Notes under the pieces: model-generated | Told to the model about the DNA's origin: nothing | Databases searched by the model: none | The model's input: the letters and a program-made list of their open reading frames with translations, nothing else | Origin: Escherichia coli | Lineage (GTDB): Bacteria > Pseudomonadota > Gammaproteobacteria > Enterobacterales > Enterobacteriaceae | Length of the DNA stretch: 64,000 nucleotides | Assembly: GCF_003018235.1 (NCBI RefSeq) | Contig: NZ_CP027437.1 | Direction: 5' to 3' (one strand) | Made by a program: the position numbers and the translations under genes | Part shown: positions 3,957 through 41,050 of the stretch, in pieces | How positions within the stretch are numbered: the first letter of the stretch is position 1 | Layout: each line of letters starts with the position of its first letter

Positions 3957-5260
3957 TTACTTCTGCTTCAACGCCGCATACACCTGATCAACTACCCAAC
4001 CATAAGTTGCAATCGGTAGCTGACCGCTTTCGAACATATTGGGATTTTTTTGTGGATCGGCAACTGGCGAATGTGGCTTGTTGCTTAACATCACAATCGC
4101 CATATGATTCACCGGATCGATAACGGTCACCGTCCCGGTCCAGCCAGTGTGACCGTAGGTTTGCGGGCTTGCCAGCGTGCCAAACGTCGGCGTCATGGTG
4201 GCATTACCATTCACGCGCCAGCCAAGGCCAAAAGTGGCATCTTCCTTAGAGCTGGTGGTGAACATCTTCACCGTTTCCGCACTGAACAGCTGCACATCGC
4301 CATAGCCGCCGCCGTTCAGCATCGTTTGCATTAACACCGCAATATCGCCGGTATTGGAAAACAACCCTGCATGCCCGGAAACGCCGCCCATCGAATAAAA
4401 GGCTTTTTCATCGTGCACCTGACCCCAGAGAGTGGAGGTGCGGATATTCGGGAAATGGATCACGCCATCGCGGGTATTGCCGTTGAGTTCCGTGGCGGCA
4501 ATTTGTTGCGGTTTAAAGCCTTTCAGTAGCGGATTAAACACCGTGTGCGTCAGGCCGAGCGGGCGATAAATCGACTCTTCAACATAGCGGTCAAGTGGCT
4601 GACCGGTAACCGACTCGACGATAAATCCAAGCAGCATATAATCGACATCGCTGTAGATATGCTTGCTGCCGGGCTGATACTCCAGCGGCGTGCGCTTGAT
4701 CATCTCCAGCGTCTGGCCTTTATCCTGGGAATATAACGCGCCCGTGACCGCTTTATTCGGGTATTGCGGATCTGCCGGGAAACCGCCGCTGTGATGCAGC
4801 AGATCAGAAATCCGCAGCGTGTTTTTGCCTTTGATCGCATCGTTCGGGCTGTCGGCAAACCCTGGAATATATTTCGCAATCCGATCGTCAGGATGCAGTT
4901 TGCCTTCGCTCATCAGCTTTTGCAGCGCGAAGTTAGTGGCGTACATCTTGGTGTTTGAGGCCAGATCATACAGCGTCCCGGTGGTGGCTTTTACAGGCTG
5001 CGCCATTAACGCGCTGCCATCGTACTTTTTCGCCGCGCCCCAGGCTTTGCGATAAACAATCTGATTATCTTTTATAATCAGCAGGTTTACTCCCGGATAA
5101 CCGGCATCCACCTGCTGGCTAATCCAGCGATCTATCTGGTTAAGCCGTTCGACGTTGAACCCTGCTTTCTCTGGCGAACTTTCTGTCAGAGCAGGGAATT
5201 TTGCGGCGCTGACGCTACAGCTAACAGCCAGCAGAGAAAGATAGAGCATTGTCCGTTTCA
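3957..5260 (-). CDS. yfeW: penicillin-binding protein 4B (class C beta-lactamase fold, SxxK)
   Basis: ORF track 3957..5348; start at 5260 (MKRTMLYLSLL signal peptide) gives 434 aa; 5 bp downstream of murP stop. Confidence 0.88.
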
Positions 5261-5265
5261 TGATA

Positions 5266-6690
<1,425 letters not shown>

Positions 6691-29797: not shown

Positions 29798-30682
29798 ATG
29801 GAACGCGTATACAGAACAGATCTTAAGTTGCTCCGTTATTTTCTTGCCGTAGCGGAAGAGTTGCATTTTGGTCGCGCAGCAGCGCGTTTAAATATGTCTC
29901 AGCCTCCGCTCAGCATTCATATTAAAGAGCTGGAAAATCAACTCGGCACGCAGCTTTTTATTCGCCATTCGCGCAGCGTCGTACTGACACACGCGGGCAA
30001 AATCTTGATGGAAGAATCGCGTCGATTGCTGGTGAATGCAAATAATGTATTGGCTCGGGTTGAACAAATAGGTCGGGGAGAAGCAGGGCGGATTGAACTC
30101 GGGGTTGTGGGAACGGCAATGTGGGGACGGATGCGCCCGGTTATGCGGCGATTCCTCAGGGAAAATCCTAACGTTGACGTTCTTTTTCGCGAAAAGATGC
30201 CCGCGATGCAAATGGCCCTGCTGGAACGACGTGAACTCGATGCCGGAATCTGGAGAATGGCGACAGAACCACCGGCAGGTTTTACCAGCTTACGGTTGCA
30301 TGAATCGGCGTTTCTGGTGGCGATGCCTGAAGAGCATCATCTCTCATCATTTTCCACCGTTCCGCTGGAAGCGCTACGTGACGAGTATTTTGTTACAATG
30401 CCGCCCGTGTACACTGACTGGGATTTTTTGCAGCGAGTTTGCCAGCAGGTGGGATTTTCACCGATTGTTATTCGCGAAGTTAATGAACCGCAAACGGTAC
30501 TCGCCATGGTCAGTATGGGTATTGGTATCACATTGATAGCGGACAGCTACGCGCAGATGAACTGGCCCGGTGTCATATTCCGTCCGCTCAAAGAACGCAT
30601 CCCGGCAGACTTATATATTGTTTATGAAACGCAGCAGGTGACGCCCGCGCTGGTTAAACTGCTGGCGGCGTTGGCGCAGTAG
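29798..30682 (+). CDS. xapR: LysR-family activator of xapAB
   Basis: ORF track 29783..30682; ATG at 29798 gives 294 aa starting MERVYRTDLKLLRYF. Confidence 0.92.
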   Translation: MERVYRTDLKLLRYFLAVAEELHFGRAAARLNMSQPPLSIHIKELENQLGTQLFIRHSRSVVLTHAGKILMEESRRLLVNANNVLARVEQIGRGEAGRIELGVVGTAMWGRMRPVMRRFLRENPNVDVLFREKMPAMQMALLERRELDAGIWRMATEPPAGFTSLRLHESAFLVAMPEEHHLSSFSTVPLEALRDEYFVTMPPVYTDWDFLQRVCQQVGFSPIVIREVNEPQTVLAMVSMGIGITLIADSYAQMNWPGVIFRPLKERIPADLYIVYETQQVTPALVKLLAALAQ

Positions 30683-30713
30683 ATGAGAGGCACGGGAACG
30701 GCCGGACATAGTT

Positions 30714-30740
30714 GGTCTGATAAGCGAAGCGCATCAGGCA
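30714..30740. repeat. REP element
   Basis: GGTCTGATAAGCGAAGCGCATCAGGCA. Confidence 0.6.
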
Positions 30741-30761
30741 ATTTCGCAAATTGCAGATAGC

Positions 30762-30789
30762 AAAAAAGCGCCTTTAGGGCGCTTTTTTA
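30762..30789. terminator. bidirectional intrinsic terminator (tRNA operon and xapR)
   Basis: AAAAAAGCGCCTTTAGGGCGCTTTTTT. Confidence 0.75.
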
Positions 30790-30792
30790 CAT

Positions 30793-30868
30793 TGGTGGGT
30801 CGTGCAGGATTCGAACCTGCGACCAATTGATTAAAAGTCAACTGCTCTACCAACTGAGCTAACGACCC
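30793..30868 (-). tRNA. lysV: tRNA-Lys (anticodon UUU)
   Basis: Reverse complement reads GGGTCGTTAGCTCAGTTGGTAGAGCAGTTGACTTTTAATCAATTGGTCGCAGGTTCGAATCCTGCACGACCCACCA. Confidence 0.95.
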
Positions 30869-32887: not shown

Positions 32888-32921
32888 AGGAGAGATACCC
32901 CTGCCGTTTTTTATTTATTCT
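32888..32921. terminator. intrinsic terminator after gltX (overlaps yfeD stop)
   Basis: AAACGGCAGGAGAGATACCCCTGCCGTTTTTT. Confidence 0.6.
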
Positions 32922-33307
32922 GATTCATCTATGTCGAGACGAGCAAGGAAATTACGAATTCCTTCGCGTGACAAAAATTGCGCAACTTTTTCCTGCTCAC
33001 TGTGAGTCATGTTGTCTATTGCGCTGATGATTTGCCGATAAGCAGGAGTGCGAATCCCCGGTGCGTATTCGGCAAGGGGTTCTTCGGCTTCCAGAAGCAT
33101 CGGCGTGTTATGGAAGGCTGGCGTGTTCTGAATAAACTCGCAAACTTGCGTATCGACCAGAATAAGTCTGGCACGACCGCCTTTCACGCCAGGAAATTTT
33201 TCCGTTTTCCAGCCTTTTTCTCTGATCCAACGGTTAACAGTTTGTTTAGCCACACCGAGGCATTCAGCCAGTTCTTCGGTGGTCATTTTATTGCGTAATC
33301 TTTTCAT
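32915..33307 (-). CDS. yfeD: small HTH DNA-binding protein YfeD
   Basis: 130-aa ORF; paralog of the adjacent yfeC. Confidence 0.8.
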   Translation of the reverse strand: MKRLRNKMTTEELAECLGVAKQTVNRWIREKGWKTEKFPGVKGGRARLILVDTQVCEFIQNTPAFHNTPMLLEAEEPLAEYAPGIRTPAYRQIISAIDNMTHSEQEKVAQFLSREGIRNFLARLDIDESE

Positions 33308-33308
33308 A

Positions 33309-33653
33309 TTATTTGCTATCGCGAATCCCTAAGCGTTGTAATAATCCGATAATCCCTTCCCGCAGAAGCAAGGATGTAAACTGTTTTTGTTCAACTGGCG
33401 TCATCTCTTTCGCCAGTGTCACCAGCAACACTTCAAGCGGCGCATCACCAGACAGGGCAGGCGCTTCTCCCTGACCTTCTGGACGTTCAGCATTGCGAAT
33501 ATATTCACGAACCTGTTCATTGACGTGAACCAGTCGGGCTTTGCCACCCTGGACGCCTGGTTTTGGTGACGTTGTCCAGCCTTCCTTGCGTACCCATTTA
33601 TTAATGGTCTGGCGGCTATAGCCGGTCAGTCTGGCAAGTTCATCTGGCGTCAT
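33309..33653 (-). CDS. yfeC: small HTH DNA-binding protein YfeC
   Basis: ORF track 33309..33668; second ATG at 33653 gives 114 aa starting MTPDELARLTGYSRQTINKW; start at 33668 (119 aa) is possible. Confidence 0.75.
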   Translation of the reverse strand: MTPDELARLTGYSRQTINKWVRKEGWTTSPKPGVQGGKARLVHVNEQVREYIRNAERPEGQGEAPALSGDAPLEVLLVTLAKEMTPVEQKQFTSLLLREGIIGLLQRLGIRDSK

Positions 33654-33828
33654 CCTCTCCTTGAACATAACAATTCCCTGAATGTATGTGGGTCTATTAG
33701 TAGTTCATTTTATAACACCACTTTACAGGAAACCGTGACATGAATAACTACTGAATGCGAGCGGTTTTCCAAAATTGTTCATTTGCCTGATTTTTCAGCG
33801 ATTGAAACTACACGTTGCAATTTGCCGT

Positions 33829-33856
33829 TGACACATTCGGGCGGAATTCATATGAT
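33829..33856 (+). promoter_or_regulatory. sigma-70 promoter of alaX-alaW
   Basis: TTGACA - 16 bp - TATGAT then GC-rich discriminator, about 32 nt before the tRNA. Confidence 0.5.
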
Positions 33857-33888
33857 GCCGCCCGTCAACTCGACAAGCTTTACGTGAC

Positions 33889-33964
<76 letters not shown>

Positions 33965-34003
33965 AATTTTGCACCCAGCAAATTTGGTACGTAAACGCAT
34001 CGT

Positions 34004-34079
<76 letters not shown>

Positions 34080-34087
34080 AATTTCCA

Positions 34088-34113
34088 ACCCTCGCTGCAA
34101 AGCGGGGGTTTTT
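34088..34113 (+). terminator. intrinsic terminator after alaW
   Basis: CCCTCGCTGCAAAGCGGGGGTTTTTT. Confidence 0.65.
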
Positions 34114-34286
34114 TGTCTCTGCTTTTTGCCGCTTTTGTAATACAGTCTACGTCCGGGTTAGCGCCGCCTGGTGAAAGCATCATTGGATGAAAAATCGGCA
34201 ACAGGCTGGCCCCTGTTTGCTTCGCGATGCGAATAAACTTATTATTTGTGTGCCTGAAAACCCCGATCAGTGAGAGTAGTGTACTC

Positions 34287-36476
34287 ATGTTTGTGGAGCA
34301 TAACCTGATAAAAAATATCAAGATATTCACACTAGCGTTTACGCTCACCGTGGTACTTATTCAGCTATCCCGTTTTATTTCGCCACTTGCCATTATCCAT
34401 TCCAGTTATATCTTTCTGGCGTGGATGCCACTGTGCGTAATGCTGTCAATCTTGTTTATCTTTGGCTGGCGCGGTGTCGTTCCCGTTTTATGCGGGATGT
34501 TTTGCACCAATCTGTGGAACTTTCATCTCTCTTTTTTACAGACCGCGGTCATGCTCGGCAGCCAGACGTTTGTTGTGTTGTGTGCCTGCGCAATATTACG
34601 CTGGCAGCTGGGGACGCGTTGGCGTTATGGATTGACCAGCCGATATGTCTGGCAACGTCTTTTCTGGCTTGGTTTGGTGACGCCGATCGGCATCAAATGC
34701 AGCATGTATCTTGTGGGGAGCTTTTTTGATTTCCCGCTAAAGATATCCACCTTTTTCGGCGATGCGGATGCCATTTTCACAGTCGTTGATTTACTAAGCC
34801 TTTTCACCGCTGTGCTGATTTACAACATGCTTTTCTACTATCTCACTCGCATGATTGTAAGTCCCCACTTTGCGCAGATATTGTGGCGCAGGGATATCGC
34901 TCCGTCGTTGAGCAAAGAGAAACGCGCATTTACCTTAAGCTGGCTGGCAGCTCTTAGCGTGCTGCTACTTCTGATGTGCACACCGTATGAGAATGACTTT
35001 ATTGCCGGTTACCTGGTACCTGTTTTCTTCATTATCTTTACCCTCGGTGTCGGTAAGCTTCGCTATCCGTTTTTAAATCTCACCTGGGCTGTTTCAACGC
35101 TTTGCCTTCTGAATTACAACCAGAACTTTTTGCAAGGGGTACTAACCGAATATTCGCTGGCATTTATTCTCGCGGTGCTGATTTCCTTTAGCGTTTGCCT
35201 GCTCTATATGGTGCGCATTTATCATCGCAGTGAATGGCTTAATCGCCGCTGGCATTTGCAGGCGCTGACCGATCCGTTAACGCTCCTACCCAACTTTCGT
35301 GCGTTGGAGCAAGCGCCGGAGCAAGAGGCGGGCAAGAGTTTTTGCTGCCTGCGCATTGATAATCTTGAGTTTATGAGTCGTCATTACGGCTTAATGATGC
35401 GCGTTCACTGTATCCGCTCAATTTACCGTACGCTGCTGCCGTTGATGCAGGAAAACGAAAAGTTGTATCAATTGCCGGGTAGTGAACTGCTGTTAGTGCT
35501 GAGTGGACCGGAAACGGAAGGGCGACTCCAGCATATGGTTAACATCCTGAATAGTCGGCAAATTCACTGGAACAATACCGGGCTGGATATGGGCTATGGT
35601 GCTGCCTGGGGGCGTTTTGATGGAAATCAGGAAACCCTGCAACCCTTGTTGGGGCAGTTAAGCTGGCTGGCGGAGCAATCCTGCGCACATCACCATGTGC
35701 TGGCGCTGGATAGCAGAGAGGAGATGGTTTCCGGGCAGACCACTAAACAGGTGCTATTGCTGAATACCATTCGCACGGCGTTAGATCAGGGTGATTTGCT
35801 GCTCTACGCCCAGCCAATTCGCAACAAAGAGGGTGAAGGTTATGATGAGATCCTCGCGCGACTGAAATATGACGGTGGCATTATGACCCCGGATAAGTTT
35901 CTGCCCCTTATTGCTCAGTTTAACCTTAGCGCGCGTTTTGATTTGCAAGTGCTGGAATCCCTGTTGAAGTGGCTGGCAACACATCCTTGCGACAAAAAAG
36001 GCCCGCGCTTTTCAGTCAATTTAATGCCGCTCACGCTGCTGCAAAAGAATATTGCCGGGCGGATTATTCGTCTGTTTAAGCGTTATAACATCTCCCCGCA
36101 GGCGGTCATTCTTGAGATCACCGAGGAGCAGGCGTTTTCTAACGCAGAAAGCAGCATGTACAACATCGAGCAACTGCATAAGTTTGGTTTCCGGATTGCG
36201 ATTGATGACTTTGGCACCGGTTATGCCAACTACGAACGGTTAAAGCGTTTGCAGGCTGATATCATCAAAATTGATGGCGTCTTTGTGAAAGATATCGTCA
36301 CGAATACGCTGGATGCGATGATTGTGAGATCAATTACCGATCTGGCGAAAGCGAAGTCATTGAGTGTGGTCGCGGAGTTTGTCGAGACGCAACAGCAGCA
36401 GGCGCTATTGCATAAGCTCGGGGTGCAATATCTGCAAGGGTATTTGATTGGTCGCCCGCAGCCATTAGCTGATTAA
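34287..36476 (+). CDS. pdeA: c-di-GMP phosphodiesterase: N-terminal membrane sensor, degenerate GGDEF, EAL domain
   Basis: ORF track 34227..36476; ATG at 34287 gives 729 aa starting MFVEHNLIKNIKIF; DDFGTGYANYERL motif in C-terminal domain. Confidence 0.88.
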   Translation: MFVEHNLIKNIKIFTLAFTLTVVLIQLSRFISPLAIIHSSYIFLAWMPLCVMLSILFIFGWRGVVPVLCGMFCTNLWNFHLSFLQTAVMLGSQTFVVLCACAILRWQLGTRWRYGLTSRYVWQRLFWLGLVTPIGIKCSMYLVGSFFDFPLKISTFFGDADAIFTVVDLLSLFTAVLIYNMLFYYLTRMIVSPHFAQILWRRDIAPSLSKEKRAFTLSWLAALSVLLLLMCTPYENDFIAGYLVPVFFIIFTLGVGKLRYPFLNLTWAVSTLCLLNYNQNFLQGVLTEYSLAFILAVLISFSVCLLYMVRIYHRSEWLNRRWHLQALTDPLTLLPNFRALEQAPEQEAGKSFCCLRIDNLEFMSRHYGLMMRVHCIRSIYRTLLPLMQENEKLYQLPGSELLLVLSGPETEGRLQHMVNILNSRQIHWNNTGLDMGYGAAWGRFDGNQETLQPLLGQLSWLAEQSCAHHHVLALDSREEMVSGQTTKQVLLLNTIRTALDQGDLLLYAQPIRNKEGEGYDEILARLKYDGGIMTPDKFLPLIAQFNLSARFDLQVLESLLKWLATHPCDKKGPRFSVNLMPLTLLQKNIAGRIIRLFKRYNISPQAVILEITEEQAFSNAESSMYNIEQLHKFGFRIAIDDFGTGYANYERLKRLQADIIKIDGVFVKDIVTNTLDAMIVRSITDLAKAKSLSVVAEFVETQQQQALLHKLGVQYLQGYLIGRPQPLAD

Positions 36477-36483
36477 CAGGCGT

Positions 36484-36516
36484 AAAAAAGCCGGGGAATG
36501 ATCCCCGGCTTTTTTA
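36484..36516. terminator. bidirectional intrinsic terminator between convergent pdeA and nupC
   Basis: AAAAAAGCCGGGGAATGATCCCCGGCTTTTTT. Confidence 0.75.
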
Positions 36517-36525
36517 TGTATGGTT

Positions 36526-37728
36526 TTACAGCACCAGTGCTGCGATTGACGCAGACAGCACACTCACCAGGGTAGAGCCGTAAACCAGTTTCAGACCGAA
36601 GCGAGAAACCACGTTACCTTGCTCTTCATTCAGGCCTTTAACTGCACCGGCGATAATCCCGATTGAAGAGAAGTTAGCGAAGGAAACCAGGAACACAGAG
36701 ATGATGCCTTCAGCACGCGGAGAGAGTGTAGAGGCAATTTTCTGCAGATCCATCATCGCAACGAACTCGTTGGAAACCAGTTTGGTCGCCATGATACTGC
36801 CCACTTGCAGTGCTTCACTGGAAGGAACACCCATCACCCATGCAATCGGATAGAAGATGTAGCCCAGGATGCCCTGGAAGGAGATGCTGTAGCCAAACCA
36901 GCCAGTAACGGTGGCAAACAGTGCGTTCAGCGCGGCGATCAGGGCGATAAAGCCGATCAGCATCGCGGCAACGATAATGGCAACTTTGAAACCTGCCAGA
37001 ATGTATTCACCCAGCATTTCGAAGAAGCTCTGACCTTCGTGCAGGTTGGACATCTGGATGTTTTCTTCACTGGCATCAACACGGTAAGGGTTGATCAGCG
37101 ACAGCACGATAAAGGTGCTGAACATGTTCAGTACCAGTGCCGCAACGACGTATTTCGGTTCCAGCATGGTCATGTATGCACCAACGATGGACATCGACAC
37201 GGTGGACATCGCCGTGGCAGCCATGGTGTACATGCGATTGCGGGAGATTTTGCCGAGGATATCTTTATAGGCAATAAAGTTTTCAGACTGACCCAGAATC
37301 AGGGAGCTGACGGCGTTAAAGGATTCCAGTTTGCCCATGCCGTTGACTTTGGAGAGCAGGAAACCAATTGCGCGGATAATCACCGGCAACACGCGAATGT
37401 GCTGGAGAATACCGATCAGTGCAGAGATAAAGACGATTGGGCACAGCACTTTCAGGAAGAAGAATGCCAGGCCTTGATCATTCATGCTACCAAAGACGAA
37501 GTTAGTCCCTTCGTTGGCAAATCCGAGCAGTTTTTCAAACATTTCGGAGAAGCCTTTCACGAAGCCTAAACCAACGTCGGAGTTCAGGAAGAACCACGCC
37601 AGTAACACTTCGATAACAAGCAGTTGAATAACATAACGGATACGAATTTTTTTGCGGTCGCTGCTTACCAGCAGTGCGAGAATCGCAACAACGGCAAGTG
37701 CCAGTACAAAATGAAGGACGCGGTCCAT
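36526..37728 (-). CDS. nupC: nucleoside:H+ symporter (CNT family)
   Basis: ORF track 36526..37767; ATG at 37728 gives 400 aa starting [20 protein letters not shown]. Confidence 0.92.
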
Positions 37729-37995
37729 ATTTGCTCCAAATATGAGGCAGGTTAAATTTCCGTGCACATTCTATGTAACATGGTTAAGGAAAACGAGATC
37801 TGACACACACTATAATGACGTCCTGTGACAAGCTTCAAAAATAGTGAGCTGTCATACATTTCTGCTATGTTGTGTATGGAAGCTGAAAGTTATGTAAATG
37901 TGCTAACATTAAACATAACCATAACATTCAAGTCATCAATCTTTTCGTAGTCATAATCCTGGTCTATCAGAGAAATCACCACAACCCATTTAAAT

Positions 37996-38014
37996 GAATT
38001 TGATAATCATTATC
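37996..38014 (+). promoter_or_regulatory. Fur box in mntH promoter
   Basis: TTTGATAATCATTATC matches Fur consensus GATAATGATAATCATTATC. Confidence 0.6.
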
Positions 38015-38029
38015 GTTTGGCATAGCATG

Positions 38030-38051
38030 AAACATAGCAAAGGCTATGTTT
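38030..38051 (+). promoter_or_regulatory. MntR operator in mntH promoter
   Basis: Palindrome AAACATAGC-AAAG-GCTATGTTT 13 bp before mntH ATG. Confidence 0.6.
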
Positions 38052-38054
38052 TAG

Positions 38055-39302
<1,248 letters not shown>

Positions 39303-39331
39303 TTCAACTGGCGTCGTACCAGGCATCACTG

Positions 39332-39368
39332 GCGGATGCGGCGTAAAACGCCTTATCCGCCCTATGCG
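39332..39368. repeat. REP element downstream of mntH (first REP of a BIME pair)
   Basis: GCGGATGCGGCGTAAAACGCCTTATCCGCCCTATGCG. Confidence 0.6.
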
Positions 39369-39382
39369 TTAAAGAGACGGTT

Positions 39383-40700
<1,318 letters not shown>

Positions 40701-40723
40701 TTGTGCTCCATTGACGGACGCGT

Positions 40724-41050
40724 TTAATGGCGATGCCCATGTCCGCGGCCTTTTCCGCGATGATCGTCACGATCGCGCCAGCCTTCACGATAGCCACGCT
40801 CATACGCTTTACGCTTATCCCAGCCACGATGGTAGCCATTATCATGACGCCACCAGCGGTTCTTACGCCATTCATAATTGCGATGCCAGTAGTCACGGTC
40901 GCGCCAGTGACCACCGTCCCAGTAATTACCGTAATGATCGCGATCGCCAATTTGTAATTTGATTGATGGCAGTAGGGTGATTTCACCTGCGTTTGCCGCA
41001 AGCGGGGTAAATGCCATCAGGGCGGCCGCCAGAAACAGTGACCTGAACAT
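40724..41050 (-). CDS. ypeC: secreted low-complexity (H/R/D/W/Y-rich) DUF2502 protein
   Basis: 108-aa ORF with signal peptide [21 protein letters not shown]. Confidence 0.8.

Follow-up and report, generated by a model that had tools for sequence, protein, structure and literature searches.

PdeA (YfeA) of Escherichia coli has been described as a protein of 'MASE1-GGDEFdeg-EAL' architecture with a proteolytic pattern (PMC6510439; PMC5635695). Its GGDEF domain was reported to be catalytically inactive and its EAL domain active (PMC3718329). In a published motif table, the full EAL consensus was given for yfeA (EILR/QRDD/TE/ENEEDKEQ) and its GGDEF-site motif was listed as PGSEL, with 'RS' and 'ESRLVQ' (PMC3484386 Table 1, Spurbeck et al. 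2012). The Salmonella protein YfeA/STM2410 is genetically required for the drop in c-di-GMP and the aggregation response that depend on external 5-oxoproline, its MASE1 domain being proposed as a direct or indirect sensor (PMC9509341). Deletion of yfeA in E. coli CFT073 leads to less biofilm, an outcome that one would not naively predict for a strain lacking a phosphodiesterase. This defect is complemented by heterologous enzymes of both kinds, a phosphodiesterase as well as a cyclase, so that the active function of the protein is not assignable from the phenotype. A second E. coli protein, PdeF, is regarded as 'structurally highly related' to PdeA and is induced anaerobically (PMC5635695). 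It carries SGNDL at the GGDEF position (PMC3484386 Table 1), and the MASE1 domain of PdeF/YfgF modulates the aspartate response, which expression of YfeA does not (PMC3718329).

The window, a stretch of 64,000 nucleotides of E. coli DNA, carries an uninterrupted ORF of 2190 nt at 34287..36476 on the plus strand, coding for 729 amino acids plus the stop. Judged by sequence identity, this ORF is the ordinary core-genome pdeA (yfeA), the same gene as b2395 of strain K-12. The name pdeA, already proposed in a sequence-only reading of the locus, is secured by the comparison with K-12 PdeA (YfeA, b2395), which has the same length and is identical at 724 of 729 positions without gaps (99%). The five substitutions between the window protein and that of K-12 (G209S, L230M, E286L, C380Y, H601N) all fall at positions that also vary among orthologues. 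DNA of the E. coli isolate SC418 is 100% identical to the window across the pdeA region, the RefSeq boundaries of pdeA in the SC418 genome are the same as those of the ORF, and pdeA has the same neighbouring genes there. Of 5426 complete E. coli genomes, 5420 contain a match that spans at least 80% of the query, the matched gene being annotated pdeA. An alternative in-frame ATG at 34227, 60 nt upstream, would extend the product to 749 amino acids; the start at 34287 is preferred because RefSeq, K-12 and the orthologues of 727-732 amino acids agree on it. PdeA passes no equivalog model of NCBIfam, its 15 matches there being to models of other GGDEF/EAL proteins and far under the cut-offs.

The order of genes around pdeA is gltX, yfeD and yfeC (both on the minus strand), two genes for tRNA-Ala(GGC), pdeA, nupC and mntH, with nupC convergent with pdeA. 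K-12 likewise has alaW/alaX upstream and nupC downstream; it differs by an IS186C element inside the pdeA-nupC spacer, which the window is without, the gene order being otherwise the same. The two tRNA genes of the alaW-alaX pair occupy 33889-33964 and 34004-34079. A terminator-like hairpin followed by a T-run at 34087..34116 on the plus strand, recognised by consensus scan only, lies 3' of the second tRNA gene and divides the tRNAs from pdeA. Between pdeA and nupC, an 18-bp stem-loop with T-runs on both strands (36480..36519), also found by consensus scan only and matching both strands, is probably a bidirectional terminator for the two convergent genes. A promoter scan of the 170 nt from the 34087..34116 hairpin to the start codon gave no convincing sigma-70-like site. 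Rfam over 33600-38400 recovered the two tRNAs alone, with no riboswitch or sRNA at pdeA. The other-frame ORFs 34421-34729 (plus strand) and 33953-34348 (minus strand) overlap pdeA or the tRNA genes and were rejected as spurious, the latter being merely the tRNA genes read on the opposite strand.

PdeA is very probably an inner-membrane phosphodiesterase specific for c-di-GMP, built from a MASE1 domain, a degenerate GGDEF domain and an EAL domain to which a signal would be relayed. The scores of the MASE1 and EAL matches (222 and 200.9 bits) are far beyond chance when set against cut-offs of about 30. Conservation was followed in an alignment of 30 full-length orthologues with overall identities of 54-71%, those with a named source coming from Citrobacter, Salmonella, Enterobacter, Lelliottia, Leclercia, Kosakonia and Pseudescherichia. 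Mean identity to the window protein is 54% in MASE1, 62% in the middle domain (29 orthologues) and 69% in the EAL domain.

The MASE1 integral-membrane domain spans residues 16-315 (34332..35231, plus strand; Pfam PF05231, E 1.2e-65, cut-off 29.8 bits), the match covering profile positions 2-298 of 299. Hydropathy gives at least eight hydrophobic 19-residue peaks within residues 7-309 and no membrane-spanning peak beyond residue 325, and in the full-length AlphaFold model the residues up to 327 form a bundle of long helices. These data agree with the description of the N-terminal ~330 residues as polytopic in the sequence-only reading. The last helix of the model, residues 289-327, extends from the membrane bundle into the cytoplasmic part. 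Many loop and helix residues of MASE1 are invariant across genera.

The preservation of these residues bears on what the membrane domain does. MASE1 could serve mainly to anchor the protein in the membrane and to determine its turnover by proteolysis, in which case expression and degradation rather than a ligand would set PdeA activity. This role agrees with immunoblots in which PdeA appears as a ladder of proteolytic fragments, with its high transcript-to-protein ratio (PMC5635695) and with the proposal that MASE1 domains confer turnover generally (PMC6510439). Against it stand the invariant loop and helix residues and the rapid and specific response to external 5-oxoproline that is mediated by the Salmonella orthologue. 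We consider it doubtful that turnover is the main function of the domain, while retaining it as the most serious of the alternatives. Roles of MASE1 in turnover and in sensing are plausibly compatible and not mutually exclusive.

The middle of the protein (residues ~326-473; 35262..35705, plus strand) is a degenerate GGDEF-like domain, assigned from a sub-threshold Pfam match and from the GGDEF fold found in the model. The match to Pfam GGDEF (PF00990) extends over residues 326-423 and reaches 20.4 bits, below the cut-off of 23.8, with partial coverage of the profile (positions 1-109 of 161). A phmmer search with residues 319-490 alone against PDB sequences returned nothing meaningful, the sequence signal being too weak. 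Residues 316-492 were modelled with AlphaFold from 19 orthologues (mean pLDDT 82), and the best 50 PDB matches that Foldseek finds for this model are all GGDEF domains (TM 0.6-0.77, 12-18% identity), led by DgcZ 3tvk (E 1.4e-10, TM 0.74, 16% identity). The middle domain is thus predicted, on its model, to keep the GGDEF fold.

The segment LPGSELL (residues 396-402, nt 35472-35492) had been read as occupying the expected place of the GGDEF motif, and three alignments concur. Its core PGSEL (residues 397-401; 35475..35489, plus strand), at the position of the GG[D/E]EF active-site hairpin, lies opposite GGDEF of Pseudomonas aeruginosa RbdA in a HMMER alignment and opposite GGEEF of E. coli DgcZ when the orthologue profile is aligned with hhalign, as it does in the published motif table (PMC3484386 Table 1). 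In the full-length AlphaFold model, PGSEL sits at the turn between strands 392-395 and 400-405. The GGDEF motif of active cyclases is found in the same place, at the turn that joins two neighbouring strands. In the RbdA and DgcZ alignments, the metal-binding aspartate is replaced by R356 and the inhibitory (I) site RxxD, five residues ahead of the motif, reads QENE at 388-391. Further changes affect the substrate site, where Lys is replaced by E361, Asn by S364, Asp by R365, His by L369, Asp by V373 and Arg by Q395. With GG[D/E]EF, the metal aspartate, the GTP-contacting residues and RxxD all lost, the middle domain, to judge from these positions, is incapable of c-di-GMP synthesis and probably does not bind GTP.

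The degenerate site is itself conserved. All 30 orthologues have P397, G398, E400 and L401, with S, N or C at residue 399, and conservation extends to the replacement residues S364, R365 and Q395; QENE at 388-391 varies, E391 excepted. The identity of 62%, together with the maintenance of PG[S/N/C]EL and of the replacement residues across genera, argues that this pseudo-GGDEF domain is, in the alignment, a conserved pseudo-cyclase under purifying selection rather than decaying sequence. It had been suggested from the sequence that a cyclase fold is retained here only as a regulatory module. The domain is indeed no cyclase, is conserved and is predicted to have the fold; 'retained only as regulatory' exceeds the data, since the regulatory role is one that we infer.

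A precedent for such a role is the EAL protein PdeA (CC3396) of Caulobacter crescentus. Work attributed to Christen et al. 2005 reportedly found that its GGDEF domain senses GTP and allosterically activates the EAL domain. By analogy, the degenerate domain of E. coli PdeA could be a GTP sensor and allosteric activator of its own EAL domain: both proteins have the same tandem arrangement, and the domain in E. coli PdeA is conserved and predicted to retain a GGDEF fold. However, the positions that would contact guanine and phosphate are replaced (S364, V373, E361, Q395), as is the metal aspartate (R356), and the replacements are conserved, so that a GTP pocket of the usual type is apparently absent. 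GTP sensing by E. coli PdeA is on these grounds very unlikely.

The EAL domain occupies residues 493-724 (35763..36458, plus strand) with a complete catalytic set. The match to Pfam PF00563 (E 2.5e-59, cut-off 31.3 bits) covers the full profile length, and 44 solved EAL sequences are matched, the best being MucR 5m1t (E 8e-38). LEITEE (residues 609-614, nt 36111-36128), which holds the ExTE motif of the catalytic glutamate, and DDFGTGYANYERL (residues 640-652, nt 36204-36242), in which DDFGTGYAN is the DD/loop-6 motif, had both been cited as signatures of a C-terminal EAL domain; the two strings are present and the Pfam score leaves the assignment firm. The domain search found no intact GGDEF site beside this EAL domain. 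The name-giving motif of the domain, which the sequence-only reading did not list, is EIL at 521-523 within YDEILARL, where ExLxR reads E521-I-L-A-R525.

Alignment to E. coli PdeL/YahA, which has been characterised structurally, places every catalytic residue. E521 and R525 of PdeA correspond to E141 and R145 of PdeL/YahA, N578 to N200, E610 and E613 to E232 and E235, D640 and D641 to D262 and D263, K661 to K283, E697 and E700 to E319 and E322, and Q717 to Q339. All 11 of these catalytic and metal-binding residues, from E521 to Q717, are invariant in the 30 orthologues. Loop 6 reads DDFGTGYANY in PdeA versus DDFGTGYATY in the active PdeL, and is conserved in the orthologues. As far as the alignment can tell, no residue required for two-metal hydrolysis of c-di-GMP to pGpG is missing from the EAL domain. 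The searchable literature yielded no report in which the enzymatic activity of E. coli PdeA was assayed directly, and the K-12 RefSeq label for the protein is 'putative'.

Some EAL domains are enzymatically silent and act as c-di-GMP receptors or triggers through protein contacts, like LapD, FimX, CsrD and YdiV. PdeA has weaker sequence matches to models or structures of LapD, FimX and CsrD, and the CFT073 deletion phenotype is not attributable to phosphodiesterase activity, two points that would suit a protein of this kind. Yet silent EAL domains are without the catalytic residues (ydiV, ycgF and yhdA in PMC3484386 Table 1), whereas PdeA has the whole set in invariant form, and its Salmonella orthologue is needed for c-di-GMP to fall. 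It is therefore highly improbable that the PdeA domain belongs with them. That PdeA is a bifunctional enzyme, whose middle domain makes c-di-GMP and whose EAL domain degrades it, is hardly credible: the product name 'bifunctional diguanylate cyclase/phosphodiesterase' of the identical protein WP_001308827.1 in many genomes, the weak Pfam GGDEF match and the predicted fold speak for it, but PGSEL stands for GG[D/E]EF, the metal aspartate and all the listed GTP contacts are replaced, the Pfam score is sub-threshold, the degenerate state is fixed in 30/30 orthologues examined, and other genomes name the protein 'sensor domain-containing phosphodiesterase' or 'putative c-di-GMP phosphodiesterase'. 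The RefSeq name is unfit for PdeA.

We privilege the reading of PdeA as a membrane-bound phosphodiesterase whose EAL domain is under the control of the other two domains. A signal would be perceived by, or through, MASE1 and could travel along the long helix 289-327, a continuation of the last membrane helix. The dead GGDEF domain would serve as a structural or dimerisation relay through which the EAL domain, the part that would hydrolyse c-di-GMP to pGpG, is turned on or off. The protein level may further be set by proteolysis, which PdeA is reported to undergo and which has been linked to MASE1 domains. The full-length model is unreliable in its inter-domain geometry (pTM 0.43) and so lends the relay mechanism no structural support. 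As to the middle domain, we tentatively put forward, as a possible though rather unlikely scheme, that the pseudo-GGDEF works without any nucleotide binding and has acquired a new role, that of a partner docking surface or dimerisation switch around the PG[S/N/C]EL hairpin, coupling a periplasmic MASE1 signal (possibly 5-oxoproline, as in Salmonella) to the EAL domain. If true, this regulatory mode would be distinct from GTP sensing by a GGDEF domain, as in Caulobacter PdeA or RbdA.

The significance of the locus is small: the gene is known, and almost no complete E. coli genome is without it. Earlier papers on E. coli already cover the gene, its architecture of three domains, the PGSEL site and the intact EAL residues (PMC3484386, PMC6510439, PMC3718329), and nothing in the present analysis departs from the published description (Spurbeck 2012, Pfiffer 2019). 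Purifying selection on the degenerate domain and the apparent lack of a GTP pocket narrow the hypotheses on its role, and the 5-oxoproline link in Salmonella is a testable lead for the input signal of E. coli PdeA.

The closest relative compared is YfeA (STM2410) of Salmonella enterica, an orthologue of 729-732 amino acids that is 68-69% identical over its full length, with the same three domains and PGSEL kept. The 5-oxoproline link was established for this Salmonella protein, in another species than E. coli. Within E. coli, PdeF (YfgF, b2503) is a paralogue that shares the MASE1 / degenerate GGDEF / EAL architecture; the two proteins can be aligned over 711 residues but are only 29% identical. 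More distant are Caulobacter crescentus PdeA (CC3396), P. aeruginosa RbdA/PA0861 and Shewanella PdeB, EAL phosphodiesterases that are preceded, like PdeA, by a regulatory, non-synthetic GGDEF domain. RbdA aligns with residues 325-727 of PdeA, and the GGDEF domain of Shewanella PdeB is described as an interaction switch (PMC9061725). Two differences set E. coli PdeA apart from these three proteins. Their sensors are PAS or periplasmic domains, whereas that of E. coli PdeA is MASE1, and they keep a GTP-binding or intact GGDEF site (GGDEF in RbdA), whereas E. coli PdeA has lost the nucleotide contacts.

The product of pdeA at 34287-36476 (4399-6588 in the coordinates of locus L001) has been given several names. 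The identical protein, WP_001308827.1, is annotated in many RefSeq genomes as a 'bifunctional diguanylate cyclase/phosphodiesterase', and in other genomes PdeA is labelled 'sensor domain-containing phosphodiesterase' or 'putative c-di-GMP phosphodiesterase PdeA'. The degenerate PGSEL site of PdeA, found where a GG[D/E]EF active-site motif is expected, does not support the bifunctional name. The homologue search also returned a 440-aa 'MASE1 family protein' (entry P0028) with 99% identity to the N-terminal 60% of PdeA. This entry represents 314 member sequences, with Shigella flexneri as the source name given, and suggests that the S. flexneri lineage carries a truncated (pseudogenised) pdeA without the EAL domain. 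Further truncated forms of PdeA are found in E. coli (entries P0024, P0027, and P0029).

The adjacent small genes yfeD (32915-33307) and yfeC (33309-33668) both lie on the minus strand, and their transcription is divergent from the tRNA-Ala/pdeA side. YfeC and YfeD visibly share the pattern MxxxxMTxxELAxxxGxxxQTxNxWxRKEGW..., and the two genes look like paralogues because of this sequence similarity of their products. YfeC is annotated in K-12 as a dual transcriptional regulator.

Comparison with E. coli SC418, whose DNA is identical across the pdeA region, revealed differences in the surrounding sequence. The BLAST alignment breaks at ~30650-30810 with a shift of ~160 bp, adjoining the RtT sRNA/tRNA-Lys-Val cluster of the SC418 annotation; this is probably a copy-number difference in repeated rtT-like units. 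The mntH-ypeC interval carries a ~1280-bp insertion relative to SC418 (39387-40666), with a minus-strand ORF at 39493-40473 coding for a 326-aa IS110-family transposase that matches the Pfam families DEDD_Tnp_IS110 and Transposase_20. REP-like sequences flank the insertion on both sides (39310-39362 and 40667-40746), each a sub-threshold naRNA4/REP match. The insertion is a candidate IS621 element, which it would fit by its size, its 326-aa protein, and its placement in REP sequences. IS621 encodes a bridge-RNA-guided recombinase.

The segment between pdeA and nupC differs from that of K-12 MG1655, where IS186C (1345 bp, insL3) sits between the two genes, whereas in the window and in SC418 the spacer is just 49 bp long (36477-36525) and contains a long hairpin.
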